Shown here: positions 1-32,000 of the stretch, in pieces
Layout of the letters: each line of letters opens with the position of its first letter
Numbering within the stretch: the stretch's first letter is position 1
DNA from: an uncultured Chloroflexia bacterium
Lineage (GTDB): Bacteria > Chloroflexota > Anaerolineae > Anaerolineales > Anaerolineaceae
Length of the DNA: 32,000 nt
Reading direction: 5' to 3'
NCBI GenBank assembly: GCA_963704755.1
Contig: OY969938.1
Location: 420,001 to 452,000 of the forward strand
Made by a program: the position numbers and the translations under genes
The notes under the pieces: generated by a model
Told to the model about the DNA's origin: nothing
Databases searched by the model: none
What the model saw: only the letters and a program-made list of their open reading frames with translations

Positions 1-1400
1 GGATAGTCGGCGCTGGGATGAGACAATCCATTTGCTTGATCCTTCAAATTCGGAAGAATGTAACAGCACGTTAAAATCTCTTTTTGATTCGATAGACGTG
101 CAAATCGAATATCAAGGGGATTTAATATCCGTTAGCTTAAGCTTTGATGAAATTTCTCGATTTTATCCACAAGGTTACGAAGCTGTTTTGCATTACGCTA
201 GTCAAAAAGTTCCTGATTTTGATAGACGGCAGGAATTGGTAAGTACTCTTTTTGATAGGGTCTACTGGAAATTTGAAATTTTAGCTGGTATTGAAAGTTT
301 TCTATTAGCTCATTTTGAAGATGCTAACATAGAGATAGATGATGTACACATGGTAGAGCTTGCAAGAGGTACATTCGCTTATTTCCTGGCAGACCAAAAC
401 CAACGCACCGAAATCGAATCACTATTTTTAATGCTGGCTCATAATATTGAACAGAAAATTCCAGAACCCAGATTGAAAGTTTTATTTGGAAGGACATTAT
501 TAGGTGTTCATGATGCTCTTATCATTCAAAGCTGGCTTTTTGATAAAACAAATAATCTTCTGTCTGCTGATGGGGACCTTGAATTATTAAATACCTTGTG
601 GCCAATTTTATTGAATAATATTAAAACTGGTTCATTTCAAAAATGCAGCCAACGAGAATCTCTCTTGCTTATTGCAACTGAATGGATAAATGGAGATCCA
701 TTTGTTGAATTATTGAACACACTCCATTCTAATAACATCCAAATGGCATGGGGAAGGTTTTTTCGCAATTACGATATTGACCACGTGGTGGATATTTGCG
801 AGAATGGCCTTTCTTATGAGGGGGGGTTGATCGTTAGTGCCATAATAGATTTCTTATCGGACAATCAAGATGACCTCGGGATTGCAGTCCTCATAAATAA
901 CCTCCAAAACTTATTGAAACGATTGAAATATGGTTTGGAATCCCCACAAGCGATTGTGTTATATGAAATGGGCTTTTCTGATAGAGTTGTTTCCGGCCAA
1001 CTTGCCGGCATCCTTGAGGACCTCCCTGCTGATAAAGAAACAATTAGACTTGCCCTTCGTAGCCGACGAGAACAGGTTTTTCGAGTTTTGGATACATTCC
1101 CGCAATATTTTTCCGAAGTATATAGAGGAATTATTTAGAAATTCATGTCAAGACGATCAATCAATTAATTTTTTATAGCAAGAATGCTGTGATCCATTTT
1201 TGATTGCAAAATTCTTTTCTTATTATCCAATGTCTGAAATTCCCAATAATCTAATCGCCAAATTACAGAAATAAAATTTTTAATAATCATTGTCTCTGAT
1301 TGGAAAACTTATTCACACAATAAACCTTCAACAAGCTTGCGAATGCAAATTTAGGTGAGTTTTCCCCTCTTCCTGCGTTATTAATATAAACATCTCAACA
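1..1400. other. AT-rich segment 1: right-hand end of a foreign-looking island
   Basis: Base composition switches abruptly from AT-rich to GC-rich at about 1390-1420. There is about 280 nt of AT-rich non-coding DNA after the CDS. Confidence 0.55.
2..1138 (+). CDS. C-terminal ~379 aa of a larger protein that starts upstream of the window. Function unknown; possibly the accessory (ratchet-like) region of a Ski2/Hel308-type helicase.
   Basis: The frame is open from nt 2, with no stop before the TTG at 32 used by the ORF track, and ends at TAG 1136-1138. Codon usage is AT-rich, unlike the backbone. The segment SLLLIATEWINGDPFVELL resembles the L-x-x-W-I-x-E segment found after the helicase core in Hel308/Ski2 proteins. 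This is a weak by-eye match only. Confidence 0.5.
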   Translation, partial: DSRRWDETIHLLDPSNSEECNSTLKSLFDSIDVQIEYQGDLISVSLSFDEISRFYPQGYEAVLHYASQKVPDFDRRQELVSTLFDRVYWKFEILAGIESFLLAHFEDANIEIDDVHMVELARGTFAYFLADQNQRTEIESLFLMLAHNIEQKIPEPRLKVLFGRTLLGVHDALIIQSWLFDKTNNLLSADGDLELLNTLWPILLNNIKTGSFQKCSQRESLLLIATEWINGDPFVELLNTLHSNNIQMAWGRFFRNYDIDHVVDICENGLSYEGGLIVSAIIDFLSDNQDDLGIAVLINNLQNLLKRLKYGLESPQAIVLYEMGFSDRVVSGQLAGILEDLPADKETIRLALRSRREQVFRVLDTFPQYFSEVYRGII

Positions 1401-11034: not shown

Positions 11035-11994
11035 TTAAGTATTAACTAAATTCAACATTCTTAACACTTCATACGGAAATATATCATCATTTCCTAAAGC
11101 TCTTTCAATCCACTTCGCCCCACATACGTTAAATCTAATCTCATCTCTCACGTTAATTGAATGCGATACTTCTCTTCGAGGGTTGGTATTTCCATTTGAT
11201 TTGCTTACTTCAAATACCATCCGGTAATACGAAGCCCAAATTAAGGACAATCCAATATGGCCGTGGCACATCCAACGTACAATATCAAAGTCAGCTCTGC
11301 TCACAATAGAAATCCAATACGTCAATCGATCGATTATATATTTGCTTTCTTTTCTTTGTATTCCTCCTTGCTCCAATGCACTCTGCAATAATGCAAATTC
11401 AAAATTAAGCTCATCATTATTAAGCCTGAACACTTCCCAAGTAATTGCATTCCTAATGATTTGGAAATTTCCTATTTCTAAGCCCACTAGACTTGCTGCA
11501 CAAGCTAATCGAACTATGATCTCAAAATTTTTTTTAAATAATGCCAAAGCTTCTCGATAATAAGAAGTAGTAGACAAAGTTGCAATTGGAATTTCGAGAG
11601 TTTTTGTATCTAAGTAGTAATTTTCAATCGAATGCCCTCGAGTCCATATTAATCTTCCATCAACTCTATGATACCGATATTCATCTTCCATTTTCGAATT
11701 CCATTGAAAACCCCTAAATTCTCGGTCAACAAATCCCACCAATTTGTCTTCAAATCGAGTACCCCTTATTTGCGAACAAACCATTTCAACTTTTTCTCTA
11801 TTTCCGATCGGTGGTGAAAAGCCTATTAAACAACTAGCATCATCAACATCAACCTTGATACGTTCTTTGTCAAAATTATCAAAAAGCCGATTAAACAATC
11901 GGTTTTCATCAGCCCCTTCAACCAACAACCTCCTTTTTAAACTCATTAATGTATATGCAATATAATCATCCATTGAAAGTTGTAAATTCGGCAT
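11035..11994 (-). CDS. DUF4435/Toprim-like putative nuclease, AriB-like effector
   Basis: 319 aa. N-terminal LLVEGADENRLFNRLF (VEGxxD motif) and downstream LVGFVDREF acidic motif, as in DUF4435/OLD-type Toprim domains. The start ATG lies 14 nt after the ATPase stop, preceded by a GGGGGG RBS. Confidence 0.6.
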   Translation of the reverse strand: MPNLQLSMDDYIAYTLMSLKRRLLVEGADENRLFNRLFDNFDKERIKVDVDDASCLIGFSPPIGNREKVEMVCSQIRGTRFEDKLVGFVDREFRGFQWNSKMEDEYRYHRVDGRLIWTRGHSIENYYLDTKTLEIPIATLSTTSYYREALALFKKNFEIIVRLACAASLVGLEIGNFQIIRNAITWEVFRLNNDELNFEFALLQSALEQGGIQRKESKYIIDRLTYWISIVSRADFDIVRWMCHGHIGLSLIWASYYRMVFEVSKSNGNTNPRREVSHSINVRDEIRFNVCGAKWIERALGNDDIFPYEVLRMLNLVNT

Positions 11995-12008
11995 TTCAAA
12001 GGCCCCCC

Positions 12009-13418
12009 TTAATCGTCAATATTATCAGAGTTATCCTCTATTTTTATTTTAGTGGGCGCTAATGCTAATTCGCTCATTTTATCTAGATGGTTTGCGCCAA
12101 TTATAGGCGAATGAGTACAAGCAATTATCTGACGGTCTCCCAATTGTTCAGCCATTCTGCTAATAAGCTTCCTTTGCCAATCCACATGTAACGAAATCTC
12201 AGGCTCGTCAATTAAAACTATTTCCTGTTGGCTCATATGAGTGGCAGCATAAACAAGTGTCATTATTTGGCGTTCCCCAGATGAAAGCGAACGCAATCCC
12301 TTTGATGATGAATTATCTTCATACTGAATTTGAACTGATTCTCCACGATATTGGGAGACATCTGGTTTATAAATTAACGATTTACCATCAAGAAATTCAT
12401 TAACGGAAGACAAATACCTATCAATACCTACAAATGATTCAGCCTGTACATCTACCATGTTCTGAAGAATATCTCGATATATTCGCAACACTCTAAATGC
12501 AGTCAGCTCAAGATTTGTTCCTATTAATAATTGATCAATTGATTGCCGTAATTGATAAATATCAATTCTGGATTCCGACCGTAAAGGGGATTGCTCCAAT
12601 TTTCTCGATAATCCTTGCATGGTCTTAAATATGTTTTCTACATCCTCACCAACATCATCAGATTTAGAAATTGAAGCAAATATTTTTAAAAAAGCATCTG
12701 AAAGTAATTTCTGATCCGATCTCCAAACATTACTTCTAGCTTCTTCAGTTTCGATTGCTAGTTGATGTTCAATTTCCACCAAAGAGGGAAAATTCACCAT
12801 CGGAGTAAAACCACCAAACCAATCTCTAGCGCGTTCAGTCGCCAAATCTTTCCATCTTGTATCAATTCCATAGCGTCTTTTCGGCTCGGAGTTTGTTGCA
12901 GCAGCTACCCAAGCTTCAATCATTGTCCGGAAAGCGGGAAAATAAGCAATATTAGCAACAGGCTCTATTTCCTTAATTCGTTTTCGACGGAAATTAATTT
13001 CAGCAAGCAAATCAAGTTTCTCACGTTCAGATAAATGCTTTAAGTCATCAATCACTAATTTATAATATTTGTTATCCTCTTCCTCATTCATAAAAAGAGA
13101 AGCTTGTTCGTTATGTTGCGCTATTGGAAAAATAACTTTATTATCAAGTTTTACTTCTATGGAGTTTTTACCTTTTTTTACTTTCGAAATGATAGATAAC
13201 TTACTTCCATTACTTAAATTTATTACGATTGTTCTAAATTTCAAAAAATCAAATCGATCAAAATCTCCACTCAAAGCATTAGCTAGAATATGCAATAAAG
13301 TGGTTTTTCCAGCTCCATTTTTCCCGAAAATGATATTAATACCTTCATGAAATTCTTGATCAATATCAAAACGCCCATACAAACCAATTGCTTTTATGCT
13401 CTTTATGTAAGTTGTCAT
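12009..13418 (-). CDS. ABC/SMC-like (AAA_15/21-type) ATPase, AriA-like sensor
   Basis: Walker A FGKNGAGKTT (13299-13325). Long helical insertion. Signature LSSGERQ, Walker B IVLIDEPEISLH, H-loop ACTHSP. I prefer ATG 13418 (MTTYIKS..., AGGAGAA RBS 7 nt upstream) over the TTG at 13445. Confidence 0.75.
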   Translation of the reverse strand: MTTYIKSIKAIGLYGRFDIDQEFHEGINIIFGKNGAGKTTLLHILANALSGDFDRFDFLKFRTIVINLSNGSKLSIISKVKKGKNSIEVKLDNKVIFPIAQHNEQASLFMNEEEDNKYYKLVIDDLKHLSEREKLDLLAEINFRRKRIKEIEPVANIAYFPAFRTMIEAWVAAATNSEPKRRYGIDTRWKDLATERARDWFGGFTPMVNFPSLVEIEHQLAIETEEARSNVWRSDQKLLSDAFLKIFASISKSDDVGEDVENIFKTMQGLSRKLEQSPLRSESRIDIYQLRQSIDQLLIGTNLELTAFRVLRIYRDILQNMVDVQAESFVGIDRYLSSVNEFLDGKSLIYKPDVSQYRGESVQIQYEDNSSSKGLRSLSSGERQIMTLVYAATHMSQQEIVLIDEPEISLHVDWQRKLISRMAEQLGDRQIIACTHSPIIGANHLDKMSELALAPTKIKIEDNSDNIDD

Positions 13419-13800
13419 CAAATTCTTCTCCTTAACAATTGTCAAAGAAATGAAAGCAATTCTTCGCTTTACCTAATAGCATTATGATTTTGCATTGCAT
13501 ACATTAAGTAATGTAATCCCCCCAATTCAGCACTAAAGTGGTTTAGTCTTAATTAATAACGGTTTCCACAATTCAATATATTGTTATTTTATTGTACGCT
13601 TCTTTCGTAATTGAAACAACTTATATTTTTTCACCTATGTCATGGAAAGAAATCACGTTTATCCACGAAAACTTTCTCGATTCACATTCTGCAATAATTT
13701 CTATATTCTGTTATTTCCTGTCATTTTCCCCCTTTCCTGTTCGACGTATTTATAGAAGACAAAAAATGTCTATAATCTATTCTACAAGGAGAACAGGATC

Positions 13801-15960: not shown

Positions 15961-16945
<985 letters not shown>

Positions 16946-23418: not shown

Positions 23419-23889
23419 TCAGCGAATCACCGCGGGCAGGTAGACGAAACCCTGGTAAAACGGGCAGGTCACGTTGGCCGTATCGCTGATCGGCGAACTC
23501 GAAGTGGAGTACCCAATCAGGCCAACCGAATATACCTGCCCAAAACCCGCTGCGCCGCCGGAGCCCGGGCCGCCGCAGGGCACTTTCAAACCTTCTCCCA
23601 GCATCGGCTCGCTCAGGTAGGCCGAATTTTCGAAAAATGTCTGCATACGTACCCGTACCTTGCCATCGATAGAAATTTCGAGGCGGGTAAGGGAAGAATC
23701 CGTGCTGGAGGCCGAGACGGAGCGCACGTTGATCGTACAAACTCCGTTCTGGGTCGAAGATTGGACACAATAGGGATTGCTGACCGCCAGAGTCACGGCC
23801 TGGGTCGAATCCGCGGTGACCTGCCCGCCGGAAAGTCCCAGCAGCAGGCCAAGGCCGATCAAGGAAACCACGATGCGGAGAATACGCAT
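23419..23889 (-). CDS. Small secreted 4-Cys protein, uncharacterised family, copy 1
   Basis: Signal peptide MRILRIVVSLIGLGLLLGLSGG. Shared motifs with its upstream neighbour: VSNPYC, C-x-IN, KVPCG-P, DTANvTCP-Y. Ends with the tail YLPAVIR. Confidence 0.75.
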   Translation of the reverse strand: MRILRIVVSLIGLGLLLGLSGGQVTADSTQAVTLAVSNPYCVQSSTQNGVCTINVRSVSASSTDSSLTRLEISIDGKVRVRMQTFFENSAYLSEPMLGEGLKVPCGGPGSGGAAGFGQVYSVGLIGYSTSSSPISDTANVTCPFYQGFVYLPAVIR

Positions 23890-23904
23890 GATGTCCTGCC
23901 TTGA

Positions 23905-24435
23905 TCAGGGATTGTAGGCCGGGCAGGTGAGATTCGCGGTGTCGGTGAGCAAAGTATTGCGATTGGAATCCAGCGGCGTGATAGACACCGAATAAACCGC
24001 GCCGTATAAATCCCCCGCGTTGCCGGCGTTGGGGGCGCCGCAAGGTACTTTAAATCCGTCGGGCACCATATCGTAAGAATAGTAAATCGTGCCTTCGAAG
24101 AAAGCAGTGGCGTTGAACCGGTTTTTGTTGAGAATTGTTATCGACAGCCAGGTCATATAAGGCGGGGTCGATTGATTATCGGTGGCCTGCATGTAACGGA
24201 AATTAATCTGGCATTGGTCGAGCGAAGGATCCGGTTGGTAACAATAGGGATTGGAGACTGTAAAGGGAGTAACTGAATTGGGAGATGGGACGTCCATGGT
24301 CCCGGCATCGCTGCTGCCGCTGACCGGAGGGGACACCGTGGGGTCAGGGGTTTGAGCCGAAACCGGCCGGTTGGCATAAGCCAGGCCGGCTCCCAAAACA
24401 ACCATCAAAAGAACGATCCAAAGGCGTTTACGCAT
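23905..24435 (-). CDS. Small secreted 4-Cys protein, copy 2 (tandem paralogue)
   Basis: Start ATG 24435 (MRKRLWIVLLMVVLGAGLAYA) with a GGGAGGG RBS. Has the same four Cys-containing motifs as copy 1 but lacks the C-terminal tail. Confidence 0.75.
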   Translation of the reverse strand: MRKRLWIVLLMVVLGAGLAYANRPVSAQTPDPTVSPPVSGSSDAGTMDVPSPNSVTPFTVSNPYCYQPDPSLDQCQINFRYMQATDNQSTPPYMTWLSITILNKNRFNATAFFEGTIYYSYDMVPDGFKVPCGAPNAGNAGDLYGAVYSVSITPLDSNRNTLLTDTANLTCPAYNP

Positions 24436-24893
24436 AATTACCCTCCCAAGTAAATGGAAAGACAATGGACTGCTGGTCAGACCATGGCATCGAATCGGCT
24501 ATGCGCAGCCCCCGGCCTGGATTCGCATCACGCGAAACCAGGATCGAGATCAATTCTCCGCCCCTCCTCCCCTTTCCACACTCACCTGTAAATTCAGGAA
24601 GAACGGCGGAATTCAATCAATATCGATCATTATAGTCGTGTTTACAAAAGAATAAAGAGGCAATTTTGCGAGGTTTTGGAAGAATGGGAAAGGCGATGAT
24701 CTGGCCGGGCGTGTGGATCGGCATGGGGCCTGGGTTGCGCCGGAGAGGGTTGGGTGGGAGTTGGGGTAGGAAAGCGATGGTTACGTTCCTTTTTACAACT
24801 GGTGGGAGTGGAACGACTACATTCAACTATGTAGTCCAAAAGTATAATCTTATATTACATCCCAAAATATAAGTGATTTGTTTTTCACTTTTT

Positions 24894-25850
24894 TTATGAT
24901 GTATTACTGACTTGCGTAGCTTTCGGCAAAGGTGTACTAGTAATTGGGAGTGTAAATGTAGGAGTAATCGTAGAAGTAGAATTTGGTTTAGTCGATGAAA
25001 TTCCTTCCAACGATAGATGGCCTAAATTTTGGTTTGAAAATTTTAGGTTATTAGTGCTTGTGCTATTTAAGATAATAAACTCTTGCTTCACCGTATTGCT
25101 ATGTCTATCAAAATAGTAGCAATACTGAGCATCTCCTGAGGATGACAATATTACACATTCAGGAATTGTTGAGGCAACTATATAGTTAGTTTTTCTTAAT
25201 GAAACAGAACGTCCTAGGTTAAAGACGATAAATAATAAAATTGCATAAAAAAATAAAATTTTAAAAAGTCTTAAACCCAGTTTTTCAGAAATACTGCCTA
25301 TAATGTTTTTTTCGGAAATAGATCTATTTGCATTCTCTTGTTTAATCAGTTTTTCTACATACTTCCCTTCCCCCCTTGAAAAAAATGGGCGAATATAACG
25401 AATTGAATATACGAGAAATCCTATTAAATACACTGTAAATTCGTTTTTCAATCCGATATAAATGAAAAGCATAATTAAGAAAAAACTATAAATATAAAAG
25501 GAAGGATAAATTACATCATACAAAGGCTCAGGGATTTTTCCAAATAAAAATGGTTTTGCTAGATTGTTGAACCACATTAAAAATGCAATTCCTAACAGTG
25601 TAACAATCAATGCAACAGAAAAAATTGTAACCAGACTAAAATCATAAGTGAATGTAGGAATTTCGAATGTAGTGAATTCACCAAATTGATAGATAAATAC
25701 AAAAGAATAGCTAAATACTGGAATTAATGCAAGTAGAAGAGTATCCGAATTGACAACTCGTGAAAAAAAATCTTCCTTCTTTGGTTCCATAAATACGTTT
25801 TTACGAATATTCTCCAAGGATTTTCTTGTTCGATTGTTTTTCATTTTCAT
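24894..25850 (-). CDS. Polytopic membrane protein (about 5 TM) with a Cys-containing extracytoplasmic C-terminal domain and a Ser/Thr/Pro-rich tail. Function unknown.
   Basis: 318-aa intact ORF in AT-rich DNA. Four clustered TM helices, a charged loop (RGEGKYVEKLIKQENANRS...), a fifth TM, then ...IPECVILSSSGDAQYCYYFD...STKPNSTSTITPTFTLPITSTPLP. It is divergent from the HerA-like gene across a 150-bp spacer. Confidence 0.7.
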   Translation of the reverse strand: MKMKNNRTRKSLENIRKNVFMEPKKEDFFSRVVNSDTLLLALIPVFSYSFVFIYQFGEFTTFEIPTFTYDFSLVTIFSVALIVTLLGIAFLMWFNNLAKPFLFGKIPEPLYDVIYPSFYIYSFFLIMLFIYIGLKNEFTVYLIGFLVYSIRYIRPFFSRGEGKYVEKLIKQENANRSISEKNIIGSISEKLGLRLFKILFFYAILLFIVFNLGRSVSLRKTNYIVASTIPECVILSSSGDAQYCYYFDRHSNTVKQEFIILNSTSTNNLKFSNQNLGHLSLEGISSTKPNSTSTITPTFTLPITSTPLPKATQVSNTS

Positions 25851-26000
25851 TTCACCCCCAATTTAGTTTCACATTTGTAAGGATTTTTTAAATAAAAGTA
25901 TATTATGATAATAAATAGATATGTAATTAAGGGGGGGATTTTTCCGTAAGATTACCTCTCGTAATTTTCGTTCTTTCTATATTTACAATGTGAGATTCAT

Positions 26001-28112
26001 ATGGACAAAAACTATATTGCTCCATGGGTTAGGGTAATAATTCTGATTTCCTCAATAATAATTATTTCTACTATTTCTTACTCATTCACTGGATCGATCA
26101 TACCGAATGATTCAAGAAATTCACTAATTTTCCAAAACGCATTACTACTGATAGTGATTGGAACAGCTCTACTAGAAAAATATTATACAAAACCAGCAGA
26201 TTCAATGGTAAACGCCTTAATGGGCATAATTACACTAATTAGTGTTTATAATGTTACACCTTCATTGATTTGGTGGCTAGTCTTTTCATTTGCATCCTTT
26301 GTGTTTATTCTATCAACCATTTCAACATCAATTTATTCTTTCGAGGCCAAAAATGAAAGACTAATAAAATTAGCAGACATTACATATGAGCCTGCAGTTC
26401 TTTTTGGGCAAGCCCGGATATTTTATTCAATATTGTTCTTATTTGCAGTTTTCACCTTTAAAGGGATTCAATCAAATCAAACTGTGGAGTTGGTGATATT
26501 TTGGGCAATTTTTGTTGTTATTTGGCCACTTAGAGTTCCACAGCTAATAACTAATATTTTTTCTTCCCAAATGAAGCATAAGCCACTAGGCTTTGTTACT
26601 AGAACCGATTGGCCTAACATAATTCGAATTGCTGTTCAACCAAACATGGAATGGAAAAGTACATCGATTAAAATTTTCCAGCAAGCAAATGGAAAACAAA
26701 ACTTAGTTTTGCCTTTATATTACGAACCTCAAGGGGAGCAAATGGTTGGAACTGGTTTAGTGGTTAAGGAAAACGAAAAGAAATTGCCTAATTTAAAAAA
26801 TGGGTTCATTTATGATCCTGATAAAGATTTCATAATTTCAGATTCAGAAATTTCTCAGGCCTTAGGCGGTGGTGCGCAATCCAAACTAATAGGTTTCATA
26901 GTTGAAGAATCAACAACCTCCGAAATAAAATTCGAAATATGGAATCCACATGAATGTCGAGAGGGAATGCTTATTTGGTGTGACATTGAAGGAAACCGCG
27001 TATATTATCAAATAGCGAGTGGTTCAACTAAAGAAGAGACATTCCAAACTAATCGACACGGGTTTCAGCTTGGAATTGCAGCTCAATTAGGTATTCTTGA
27101 CAAAGGAGCGGGCTTCATAAAATATTTGTGGATACCAAAAATGAATTCTCCTGTTTTTTATGAAGGAAATGAATTTGGGGAATCAGAATCAATAATTCAG
27201 CCGGGAGATTTCGTTTATGGGAATATTCCTGGTACAAACCTTAGAATTGGCGGTGCCTTTACCATTAACATGGATCACCATACTGCCATTCTTGGAATAA
27301 CCGGTTCAGGAAAAACAGAATTGGCTTTTGATCTTATTAGGCATTCAATTAATCAAGGGATAAAAGTAATTTGCATTGATTTGACGGCTAGATATGAGTT
27401 TAGATTGAACGATCTACATCTTAACAATTTGACTCTTTCTCCTGAAATCATTCGTGAGCTTAATTTGAGATTATTTGATGTAGAAACGGGAAAATTCGGT
27501 GCTCCAGATGAAAAAAAAGCTCTTCAAGATTTCTCACAAGAAATTAGGCAAAATGTACAAAATGTTCTAAAAGGCTTCTTAGAAAAGTCCGATGAAAATA
27601 ATCAAATTGGGATGATTACGCTAGAAGAAATCTCAAATACAAAAGCCACATTATATATAACAGAAATGTATTTAACTTGTCTTTTGCATCTTAAACGTGA
27701 GAATACAAACTCGACACCTAAGATTCTAATCGTTGTTGAAGAAGCGCATACGGTAATGCCAGAACCAAGTACTATGGGGTTAGGAGATTTTGATTTAAAA
27801 GGTCTAGTTGGAAAAATATCACAAATAGCCCTTCAAGGTAGAAAATATGGTGTTGGCTTATTAGTAATCGCTCAAAGAACTGCAACTGTCAGCAAATCAA
27901 TATTAACTCAGTGTAATACAGTAATAAGCTTTAACTGTTTCGATGATACTAGCCTAGGTTTTTTAAGTAACATTTTTGGATCCAGTTTTGTGCCATTAAT
28001 TCCAAATCTTCCTCCGTTAAATGCAATTGTGTTTGGAAAAGGCGTTCGTAGTCAAAGGCCTGTAATCATCCAAATACCCTTTGATGAAGAGAAAGCTAAA
28101 GCTCTCACATAA
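26001..28112 (+). CDS. Membrane-anchored HerA/DUF87-family (FtsK-HerA superfamily) ATPase
   Basis: 703 aa. About 6 predicted TM helices in residues 1-185 and a beta-rich middle region (possible HAS-barrel). Walker A ILGITGSGKT (27294-27317). Walker B ILIVVEEAHTVMPE (from 27723). GRKYGVGLLVIAQRTATVSKSILTQCNTVISF is typical of HerA/DUF87. Confidence 0.8.
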   Translation: MDKNYIAPWVRVIILISSIIIISTISYSFTGSIIPNDSRNSLIFQNALLLIVIGTALLEKYYTKPADSMVNALMGIITLISVYNVTPSLIWWLVFSFASFVFILSTISTSIYSFEAKNERLIKLADITYEPAVLFGQARIFYSILFLFAVFTFKGIQSNQTVELVIFWAIFVVIWPLRVPQLITNIFSSQMKHKPLGFVTRTDWPNIIRIAVQPNMEWKSTSIKIFQQANGKQNLVLPLYYEPQGEQMVGTGLVVKENEKKLPNLKNGFIYDPDKDFIISDSEISQALGGGAQSKLIGFIVEESTTSEIKFEIWNPHECREGMLIWCDIEGNRVYYQIASGSTKEETFQTNRHGFQLGIAAQLGILDKGAGFIKYLWIPKMNSPVFYEGNEFGESESIIQPGDFVYGNIPGTNLRIGGAFTINMDHHTAILGITGSGKTELAFDLIRHSINQGIKVICIDLTARYEFRLNDLHLNNLTLSPEIIRELNLRLFDVETGKFGAPDEKKALQDFSQEIRQNVQNVLKGFLEKSDENNQIGMITLEEISNTKATLYITEMYLTCLLHLKRENTNSTPKILIVVEEAHTVMPEPSTMGLGDFDLKGLVGKISQIALQGRKYGVGLLVIAQRTATVSKSILTQCNTVISFNCFDDTSLGFLSNIFGSSFVPLIPNLPPLNAIVFGKGVRSQRPVIIQIPFDEEKAKALT

Positions 28113-28207
28113 TGCTTTATTGCAGAAATAAAATAGGTATATTGTATTAAATTAAGATTGCTTTTTGTAATCTAGATCATTTCCCAATGGATTTTCTCAT
28201 TAACCTA

Positions 28208-28227
28208 TTGTTTCCCGCGGGATACAA
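28208..28227. promoter_or_regulatory. Candidate operator of the toxin-antitoxin module
   Basis: 20-bp near-perfect palindrome ttgtTtcccgcgggaTacaa with a perfect 10-bp core tcccgcggga, ending 8 nt before the toxin-remnant ATG. Confidence 0.45.
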
Positions 28228-28234
28228 TGATTGT

Positions 28235-28420
28235 ATGATTGAGATTCGAGAAACCGATGAATATAAGGAATGGTTAATCTCTTTGAAAGATAAAAGGGCA
28301 AAAGTCAGGATCGATATCCGGATTCGAAGAGGCTTCTCAAGAAATTTCAGGGATATAAAGCTAAAAGGATATACAGCGAGCACACGAAATTGCTCAAATG
28401 CTAAAGGAATAGCCAAATGA
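28235..28420 (+). pseudogene. Decayed addiction-module killer protein (RelE/HigB superfamily)
   Basis: The N-terminus MIEIRETDEYKEWLISLKDKRAKVRIDIRIRR matches the killer-protein family. The sequence then loses similarity. A different frame ends ...AHEIAQMLKE*, which looks like the authentic C-terminus. This implies an internal deletion or frameshift of the core. Confidence 0.55.
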
Positions 28421-28737
28421 AAAAAGAACCCATTACCACCAGTCTATGGGATCCATCCGAACATCTGGAAACAGAAGAAGACATGGTAATGTACTTAGAG
28501 GCAGCCTTCGAAGAGGGCGATCCCGCATTAATTTCCGCGGCGCTGGGCGATATTGCCAGAGCCAAAGGAATGGCTCAAATCGCCGAAAAAACCGGGCTTG
28601 GTCGGACCAGCCTCTATAAAGCCTTATCGCCCGAAGGCCATCCGGATTTCGTCACCGTTCTAAAAGTGATCGATGCTCTTGGGATGAAGCTGCAGGCAAT
28701 ACCCAACAAACCCTATACTGGCCGTCAAACGGCCTGA
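28417..28737 (+). CDS. Addiction-module antidote protein (HigA-family HTH antitoxin)
   Basis: 106 aa. LWDPSEHLETEEDMVMYLEAAFEEGDPALISAALGDIARAKGMAQIAEKTGLGRTSLYKALSPEGHPDFVTVLKVIDALGMKL is highly characteristic of this family. It overlaps the upstream ORF by 4 nt (ATGA). Confidence 0.85.
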   Translation: MKKEPITTSLWDPSEHLETEEDMVMYLEAAFEEGDPALISAALGDIARAKGMAQIAEKTGLGRTSLYKALSPEGHPDFVTVLKVIDALGMKLQAIPNKPYTGRQTA

Positions 28738-31272: not shown

Positions 31273-32000
31273 ATGGATTTGACGAACAGCTTATACAATA
31301 TTGATTGTCTAAAATTAATTGAACGTTTGCCATCAAAAAGCATAGATTTAGTCTATTTAGATCCCCCTTGGACAACTTTTCGGTTGCCATATAAATTTAG
31401 GACGTATGGTGACGAAAAAGAAACCGATTATTTTTTGTTCTTGTCAAGACGCTTACAGCACATTCACAGAATCCTGAAAGAAACTGGAAATTTATTCTTT
31501 CATATAAACACAGAAAACTCACATCAAATCCACCTTCTAATCGACCACTATTTCGGGATTGAAAATTTTCGGTCTCAATATATTCTTCCCTATTTAGATT
31601 ATTCAGTGATCCTTTATCATGGGAAAACATCCGAGTCGATTTATAACCCTCAAATAAGGCCATATAAAAGTGAAGAAATAGAAGCAAGATACCCAAGTGA
31701 GGATGAACGCGGCAGATACCGCTTGATAAGTTTGATCACACCAAACGACTGTCCAAGTCTCCGATTTGAGTGGAATGGGATAACACCCCCCGCTGGACGT
31801 TCATGGAAAGTTAGCCGTGAACGGCTAAACCAACTTCAATTGGAAAATCTGGTTTCCTTCGGAATATCTAGCAATATTCCTTCAAAGAAGGAATATTGCG
31901 ATGAAGAGAAAGGATTACCAATACCGAGCATTTGGGATGACATAAACTACTTTATTCCGCAAGATGAAAGGACAGGCTTTGTCGCCCAACAAAGCATTGA
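31273..32000 (+). CDS. DNA methyltransferase (N6-adenine/N4-cytosine, N6_N4_Mtase family, beta-type motif order), 5' partial
   Basis: Not in the ORF track because it has no stop in the window. ATG 31273 gives MDLTNSLYNIDCLKLIERLPSKSIDLVYLDPPW (motif IV DPPW)...LQHIHRILKETGNLFFHIN...HLLIDHYFGIENFRSQ...RYRLISL...SIWDDINYFIPQDERTGFVAQQSI, open to nt 32000. Confidence 0.75.
   Translation, partial: MDLTNSLYNIDCLKLIERLPSKSIDLVYLDPPWTTFRLPYKFRTYGDEKETDYFLFLSRRLQHIHRILKETGNLFFHINTENSHQIHLLIDHYFGIENFRSQYILPYLDYSVILYHGKTSESIYNPQIRPYKSEEIEARYPSEDERGRYRLISLITPNDCPSLRFEWNGITPPAGRSWKVSRERLNQLQLENLVSFGISSNIPSKKEYCDEEKGLPIPSIWDDINYFIPQDERTGFVAQQSI

Follow-up and report, generated by a model that had tools for sequence, protein, structure and literature searches.

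To our knowledge, HerA-based defence has so far been represented only by two-gene systems whose effectors are soluble enzymes. In one of these, SIR2-HerA, the effector forms a ring that sits over the DNA channel, bound to the N-terminal beta-barrel side of HerA (PMC11472057). A HerA protein of different architecture is encoded in an uncultured Chloroflexia bacterium of the family Anaerolineaceae (assembly GCA_963704755.1, contig OY969938.1), within a stretch of 32,000 nucleotides (nt) at positions 420,001 to 452,000 of the forward strand, hereafter the window. The open reading frame (ORF) at 26001..28112 on the plus strand of the window encodes a protein of 703 amino acids (aa), here named TM-HerA, which, judging from its motifs, is a complete and probably active HerA carrying a module of six transmembrane (TM) helices at its N-terminus. 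The HerA clade itself is known; the new element is an uncharacterised family of this clade with a fused six-TM module in a defence context. No account of a TM-fused HerA in defence was found in the literature, the coverage of which did not extend to the FtsK-HerA classification of Iyer et al. 2004. By analogy with the two-gene systems, we favour with moderate confidence the reading that TM-HerA is a single-gene system akin to the Her defence systems, protecting against phages or plasmids, with the membrane module as its effector.

The original prediction for this DNA had described about 185 hydrophobic residues ahead of a HerA/DUF87 ATPase core, and both elements were borne out by the analysis. 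The N-terminal membrane module (aa 1–185; 26001..26555, all features of the protein being on the plus strand) displays six hydropathy peaks within the first 180 residues, and the AlphaFold2 (AF2) model, a monomer built with 22 homologues at a predicted local distance difference test score (pLDDT) of 75, places helices at residues 8–30, 38–56, 65–80, 88–113, 138–154 and 159–177, together with an amphipathic helix at 119–135. Across 60 full-length homologues, the N-terminus carries on average 2.1 lysine and arginine residues, loop 2 carries 1.6, loop 4 carries 4.7 and the stretch following TM6 carries 2.5, with 0.75, 0.37 and 0.33 in loops 1, 3 and 5, respectively; by the positive-inside rule, these counts therefore indicate six TM helices with external loops of 4–9 aa. 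The protein is thus predicted to have both ends in the cytoplasm. Residues 197–418 are all-beta in the same model and are followed by a RecA-type alpha/beta domain with a helical insert. Based on AF2 and Foldseek, the beta-rich region (aa 196–420; 26586..27260) was assigned as a HerA N-terminal (HAS-type) beta-barrel with extra strands, and the HerA-clade RecA-like ATPase with its helical insert (aa 421–703; 27261..28109) was detected by PADLOC, NCBIfam, Pfam, the PDB sequence profile and Foldseek.

The catalytic motifs named in the prediction are all present, namely Walker A GITGSGKT (aa 432–439; 27294..27317), Walker B VVEEAH (aa 578–583; 27732..27749) and a third motif, GRKYGVGLLVIAQR...LTQCNTVISF, at aa 613–644. 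Both Walker motifs are conserved in the homologues: G432, T434, G435, G437, K438 and T439 of Walker A and E580, E581, A582 and H583 of Walker B occur in at least 95% of the 60 sequences, and the same threshold is reached by the QGRKY...AQR segment (aa 612–626; 27834..27878), including R614/K615 and Q625/R626. From general knowledge of FtsK-HerA ATPases, we take R614 to be a candidate arginine finger and Q625/R626 to be sensor positions. Pfam DUF87 matched with 28.3 bits against a gathering cut-off of 23.2, homologues of the protein carry a precomputed PF01935 assignment, and many PADLOC HerA models matched with E-values down to 2e-22. The top 50 Foldseek matches in the PDB were HerA chains only, led by Sulfolobus solfataricus HerA (4d2i, E 4e-18) and followed by chains of SIR2-HerA, DUF4297-HerA and HerA-NurA, with 9c1m, 8xau, 8ziq and 8wiv among the matches; the alignments spanned 440–590 columns and therefore covered both the barrel and the ATPase. 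In the PDB sequence-profile ranking, the anti-phage HerAs came first (9c1m 2.8e-20, 8xau 1e-17) and the archaeal repair HerAs lower, at 1e-9 to 3e-10 (4d2i 1e-9). As far as sequence can tell, the ATPase core is nearest to the anti-phage HerAs.

A word-indexed protein search retrieved more than 400 relatives, of which more than 100 are full-length proteins of about 700 aa with 48–72% identity, from Anaerolineales, Ignavibacteria and Mariprofundus; their source annotations say merely DUF87 or ATP-binding protein. The alignment is conserved along the whole length including the membrane part, where motifs such as FTKPADSxVN and FWGxFxxIWPLGxP recur, and mean pairwise identity amounts to 42% in the TM module, 38% in the barrel region and 57% in the ATPase. 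Within the module, P35, E59, P65, N71, G136, F146, L164, W168 and P176 are retained in at least 95% of sequences; the module's conserved motifs are a cytoplasmic one, E59-x3-T-K-P65-x-D-S-x2-N71, and W168...W175-P176. Such conservation would not be expected of a simple anchor. When a profile of the TM module alone was run against 1.84 billion representatives, it yielded 412 clusters at 50% identity (E ≤0.001), in which the module is N-terminal without exception, and all long matches retrieved (680–806 aa) are HerA proteins; the module and HerA therefore form one evolutionary unit. This profile search returned TM-HerA proteins and their fragments only, with no case of the module standing alone or fused to other enzymes.

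The sole deviating architecture is P0258, a distant TM-HerA of 1273 aa with a C-terminal extension of about 550 aa. The extension showed a weak Cas4 match (E 0.003) and PD-(D/E)xK-looking motifs by eye, no match in Pfam or the PDB, and a selenoprotein-family match at noise level (E 0.088); P0258 may be a nuclease-fused variant. A separate observation comes from L098, a short 2.5-kb Logan contig, in which separate ORFs at 908–2471, in different frames and with a 47-nt overlap, encode 203 aa of TM module and 332 aa of DUF87 part. This copy may have been frameshifted, which is what the overlap looks like, or the protein may be naturally split. The family is spread patchily over Chloroflexota, Ignavibacteria, Zetaproteobacteria, Actinomycetota, Bacteroidota and alphaproteobacterial plasmids, and nine matches lie on plasmids, four of them conjugative. 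The best reading is that the gene travels alone when it is exchanged horizontally between phyla. A phage origin was considered and rejected, since tblastn gave no match for TM-HerA in 50,697 phage records and BFVD returned only weak fold matches.

Apart from the generic DUF87 model, no curated cut-off was reached by the 703-aa protein, which bears out the expectation that it lies outside the characterised families. NCBIfam HerA_antiphage (cut-off 800 bits) and HerA_antiphage_2 (cut-off 850) scored 54 and 55 bits, and the HerA_antiphage match is confined to the C-terminal half of the ATPase; CedB scored 22.6 bits against 700 and CedD 44.2 against 600; TrwB_AAD_bind reached 17.3 against 20.5, in the P-loop region only; and the TraC and VirB4 models gave E-values of 0.016 or worse. 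No Pfam match for the FtsK_SpoIIIE motor or gamma domain was found in the protein. The PADLOC model for mad8 of the methylation-associated defence system (MADS) aligned with the ATPase core (aa 420–687, E 7e-16), and no MADS operon occurs in the window or in the related TM-HerA loci, where the neighbours that matched mad2 and mad6 probably represent type I methylases and two Ser/Thr kinases. As a result of scores far below the cut-offs or of absent partners, TM-HerA is classed as neither an anti-phage HerA, CedB/CedD, VirB4 or a type IV coupling protein (T4CP), FtsK nor mad8.

The genomic neighbourhoods of the relatives were collected from genomes, metagenomes, assemblies and plasmids, giving 74 distinct loci after removal of near-duplicates. 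An earlier scan of genome contigs gave 6 loci only and was dominated by the generic P-loop pattern; a sub-alignment specific to the family, applied to metagenome contigs, yielded 80. TM-HerA is the sole gene common to the 74 distinct loci, with flanking genes variable in size, orientation and distance. All-versus-all BLASTP of the ORFs around 12 and then all 74 loci revealed no conserved partner, and with up to four genes counted on each side the most frequent neighbour family was present in at most 6 of the 74. TM-HerA is therefore apparently a conserved, autonomous unit. SIR2 and DUF4297 families were not among the top neighbour families of these loci and none lies beside the window gene, and the earlier statement that no NurA, SIR2 or DUF4297 partner accompanies TM-HerA in the window holds.

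Many of these neighbourhoods are defence contexts, as had been anticipated, with type I, type III, McrBC and bacteriophage exclusion (BREX) genes adjoining the ATPase. The leading Pfam families among 266 neighbour proteins were N6_Mtase, N6_N4_Mtase, ResIII, HsdM_N, Methylase_S, HSDR_N and Mrr, and the leading PADLOC models were type I, II and III methyltransferases and type I specificity subunits. In Mariprofundus ferrooxydans (L002, 1–16660), TM-HerA sits within a BREX operon between pglX and pglZ, in the order brxC, pglX, an SLFN/AlbA-like gene, a 178-aa ORF, a Shedu-like SduA_C gene, a 574-aa gene, TM-HerA, pglZ and brxL; the five genes interrupting BREX are a nested defence cassette. In L013 and L014, TM-HerA precedes mcrB-mcrC by 15 nt, and a type I system comes next. 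The order hsdR-hsdM-hsdS-TM-HerA recurs in four loci with 5 nt between hsdS and the ATPase, which in one of them is just 30% identical to that of the window, and type III Mod and Res genes adjoin or overlap TM-HerA in L015, L038, L052 and L062. HEPN, SLFN-like and Ser/Thr kinase genes are neighbours in L011, which also shows a faint SIR2_2 match 8 kb from TM-HerA. A Bradyrhizobium plasmid carries the gene amid insertion sequence (IS) elements, a restriction endonuclease, RelE, Abi and Fic genes. Restriction-type or other defence genes were counted in at least 15 of the 41 loci having 6 kb of flank or more, a raw count and, as not every Pfam or PADLOC neighbour match was mapped to its locus, a lower bound. 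TM-HerA most likely lands preferentially in or beside restriction-type defence loci.

Two further observations concern these loci. A 400-aa protein with SNIPE, T5orf172 and MUG113 domains is encoded 3 kb upstream of TM-HerA in L013/L014 (5700–6902, minus strand), within the island that also holds McrBC and the type I system. Downstream of TM-HerA, L001 (12158–13311) and L015 (14151–15132), two otherwise different loci, share a small gene pair (about 80 aa and about 200–230 aa) with 46–53% identity.

The favoured reading of TM-HerA as a one-gene defence system would work as follows. The six-helix module and the complete HerA would assemble as a membrane-embedded hexamer with 36 TM helices, whose HerA ring, by analogy with SIR2-HerA and DUF4297-HerA, would serve as an ATP-driven, DNA-engaging sensor and motor for foreign DNA. 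The TM module is fused directly N-terminal to the barrel, where SIR2 docks in SIR2-HerA, and would therefore occupy the effector position; on this barrel face it would act as the effector or output, with the cytoplasmic loops (E59...N71 and the K/R-rich loop 4) predicted to face the barrel ring. Activation would then disturb or open the membrane and lead to abortive infection. Several points weigh against this reading. Recognisable defence neighbours were seen, by raw count, in about one third of the well-flanked loci only, and many other TM-HerA loci have housekeeping genes alongside. We infer the defence role, the hexamer and the effector role, and what ties the gene to defence is genomic association; the AF2 model is that of a monomer at moderate confidence (pLDDT 75). 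The TM module may instead be an anchor or a conduit, and the weak Cas4-like extension of P0258 (E 0.003) would point to a nuclease as effector, with the TM module merely localising it.

The main rival, a possible though rather unlikely explanation, is that TM-HerA handles DNA at the entry stage without killing the cell: the TM module would anchor the hexameric translocase in the inner membrane or form a conduit in it, and the motor would grip arriving phage or plasmid DNA and expel it, stall it or feed it to the neighbouring restriction system. HerA is a double-stranded DNA (dsDNA) translocase and the catalytic motifs of TM-HerA are intact; N-terminal TM helices followed by a pumping ATPase are also the plan of FtsK/SpoIIIE, the T4CPs and CedB/CedD; and external loops of just 4–9 aa suggest a compact in-membrane bundle. 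The repeated sharing of operons with type I, type III, McrBC and BREX systems would be better explained in this way, as would the possible, weakly indicated C-terminal nuclease fusion in P0258. However, the TM helices hold few conserved polar residues to line a DNA-sized pore, a DNA-recognition domain such as FtsK-gamma is lacking, and restriction partners are found in a minority of loci. A broader wording, in which TM-HerA provides single-protein membrane immunity and the motor of a 36-helix assembly either expels entering DNA, holds it for restriction or opens a pore, is doubtful in our estimation.

The original prediction had instead regarded two genes as the system, with an additional polytopic protein as the membrane partner or effector of the ATPase, as in DNA import by CedA and CedB. 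The candidate partner is an ORF of 318 aa with four to five TM helices (24894..25850, minus strand), divergent from TM-HerA across a shared AT-rich intergenic spacer of 150 bp (25851..26000). Both ORFs and the spacer exist as described, both products are membrane proteins, and both genes lie in the same AT-rich patch, where GC drops from about 0.57 to 0.29–0.37 across about 24.5–28.5 kb, consistent with the AT-rich island that had been noted. The Cys-containing stretch (aa 221–260) and the S/T/P-rich tail of the 318-aa protein were recovered, while its description as a 5-TM protein stood in part, since hydropathy gives four clear peaks and a fifth, weaker helix. The chance of 318 open codons arising at the local base composition is about 1e-11, and the ATG has a Shine-Dalgarno-like motif, GGGGGTG, on its 5' side; the ORF is therefore real. 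Nevertheless, the protein matched no family in Pfam, PADLOC or NCBIfam, only itself in a word-indexed search of 5.8 billion clustered proteins, and nothing by tblastn or phmmer in 96 related loci. No homologue lies beside TM-HerA in any of the 73 other distinct loci, including the one with the 72%-identical ATPase, whose upstream gene is co-directional and encodes a soluble protein of 286 aa unrelated to the 318-aa protein. An adjoining polytopic membrane gene is no recurrent trait of the family. A single-sequence AF2 model of the 318-aa protein (pLDDT 48.8) was too poor for a fold search, and promoter-like hexamers in the spacer, like promoter and terminator counts around the divergent pair, showed no excess over shuffled sequence. 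The Ced analogy fared no better, with CedB and CedD far below their cut-offs, no conserved polytopic partner, a bacterial family, and a region between TM helices and ATPase whose best structural matches were HerA barrels, with no VirB4 chain among the Foldseek top 50. Because the 318-aa protein is an ORF without homologues and is absent from the related loci, the outcome that the prediction itself had named as refuting it, the divergent genes are not regarded as a system, and a two-gene arrangement is extremely improbable; the 318-aa ORF is probably unrelated cargo of this AT-rich islet, specific to the lineage. Improbable too is a role in the transfer of mobile elements, in which TM-HerA would be a TraB- or T4CP-like conjugative DNA translocase borne by integrative elements and plasmids. 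The closest homologue's locus contains two integrases and a small FtsK/SpoIIIE protein, and the plasmid-borne and conjugative copies and the weak TrwB_AAD_bind match point in the same direction, but that match is below cut-off and confined to the P-loop, families of type IV secretion systems (T4SS) or relaxases are not among the top families of the 266 neighbours, the Bradyrhizobium copy lies outside the transfer region, and the gene is embedded in BREX and type I operons and absent from phage records. Quite improbable, finally, is a housekeeping role at the membrane, for example in secretion, chromosome handling or natural DNA uptake, to which the link with defence islands would be incidental: ordinary metabolic neighbours in many loci and the bare DUF87 or ATP-binding annotations would agree with it, whereas the distribution is patchy across phyla without conserved synteny, the window copy occupies an islet whose GC lies about 25 points lower than that of the DNA around it, and restriction-modification genes supply the commonest neighbour families. 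The conjugative, Ced-like and housekeeping readings are all poorly supported.

In the window, TM-HerA occupies one of three AT-rich islets in all, with a type III Mod gene 3 kb away. PADLOC returned no match for the genes neighbouring it, and no tRNA was found in the window. The toxin-antitoxin module reported next to it was confirmed by half: the antitoxin of the HI1420-downstream family is intact (28417..28737, plus strand; PF21716, E 2e-30), and the 77-aa ORF whose end overlaps its start by 4 nt (28187–28420, plus strand) matched no toxin family, giving no hit in Pfam, PADLOC or the PDB. The N-terminal half of this ORF is toxin-like by eye, and beside an intact antitoxin it is probably a decayed toxin. 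A pentapeptide-repeat gene also lies downstream of TM-HerA. The DNA methyltransferase that had been noted is present as well, as a type III Mod-like N6/N4 enzyme with a DPPW motif (31273..32000, plus strand, open at the window end), although it is not adjacent as claimed, starting 3.1 kb downstream. It matched Mod in the PDB (6k0w, 4e-6) as well as EcoP15I Mod, and showed weak BLAST matches to methyltransferases adjoining TM-HerA in L018, L038, L052 and L062.

The other islets contain genes of known defence systems. The second (GC about 0.34–0.38; 11035–13445, minus strand) encodes a pair resembling the phage anti-restriction-induced system (PARIS), in which a 478-aa ABC/AAA_21-type ATPase matched PADLOC AriA (7e-28) and a 319-aa DUF4435 protein matched AriB (1.5e-18). 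The third (32–1138, plus strand) holds a 368-aa ORF matching the Hachiman helicase HamB (E 7e-78) over its C-terminal third only (profile positions 678–1035 of 1037); near the window edge, it is either a truncated gene or a gene interrupted upstream. Elsewhere, an aldo/keto reductase at 15979–16945 (plus strand) is represented by two overlapping ORFs covering profile positions 2–100 and 101–289, which looks like a frameshift or a pseudogene. Just upstream of the TM-HerA islet (23419–24465, minus strand), the products of two tandem paralogues with 38% mutual identity (E 2e-16) are small, contain Cys, begin with a hydrophobic segment in their N-terminal part and have no family match.

If TM-HerA is defensive, it would constitute a membrane-acting branch of HerA defence comprising at least 412 clusters at 50% identity in many phyla, and would offer a simple one-gene case of a ring translocase coupling DNA engagement to an effector. 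That it has repeatedly been inserted in operons of type I, type III, McrBC and BREX systems points to a functional link with restriction, and should the membrane-immunity reading prove true, the six-TM module would represent a kind of membrane domain, gated by DNA or by the motor, that has so far gone unrecognised. As a partner, the divergent 318-aa membrane gene is a false lead.

Among known systems, FtsK/SpoIIIE and Streptomyces TraB combine an N-terminal polytopic membrane domain with a hexameric dsDNA pump of the FtsK-HerA superfamily. TM-HerA likewise has a polytopic N-terminal membrane domain ahead of the motor, but it belongs to a different clade, has no long linker, is neither syntenic nor universal, and resides in islets. 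With VirD4/TrwB and VirB4, it shares membrane anchoring, the superfamily and the weak TrwB_AAD_bind match; it differs in having six TM helices rather than two and no T4SS or relaxase neighbours. The soluble ATPase mad8 of about 314 aa belongs to an eight-gene operon whose detection needs mad6, mad7 and mad8. An interchangeable effector slot that can hold a membrane-disrupting TM domain is known from the cyclic oligonucleotide-based antiphage signalling system (CBASS) and the pyrimidine cyclase system for antiphage resistance (Pycsar), from type II Thoeris and from membrane CARF effectors. These effectors are nucleotide-triggered, whereas TM-HerA has its TM domain permanently joined to a DNA motor, and there is no sequence similarity to them, the TM profile matching TM-HerA proteins only.

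The Ced ATPases are membrane-bound DNA motors that join TM helices, an N-terminal domain and a HerA-clade ATPase (bioRxiv 10.1101/2024.09.27.615246). TM-HerA resembles CedB and CedD in uniting these three parts in one polypeptide, but Ced has VirB4-NTD-like domains, the conserved VirB6-like partners CedA/CedE and pilins, and TM-HerA is bacterial, has a region matching HerA barrels in this place and is without a conserved membrane partner. Closest of all are SIR2-HerA (Nezha) and DUF4297-HerA ('Her' of Gao), which share with TM-HerA the N-terminal beta-barrel plus RecA ATPase and the defence-island context, and which gave the best sequence and structure matches. In these systems, the effector gene lies upstream of herA, whereas in TM-HerA the module is fused N-terminally, on the same barrel face; in place of a SIR2 or DUF4297 gene, TM-HerA carries a six-TM domain on the same polypeptide.

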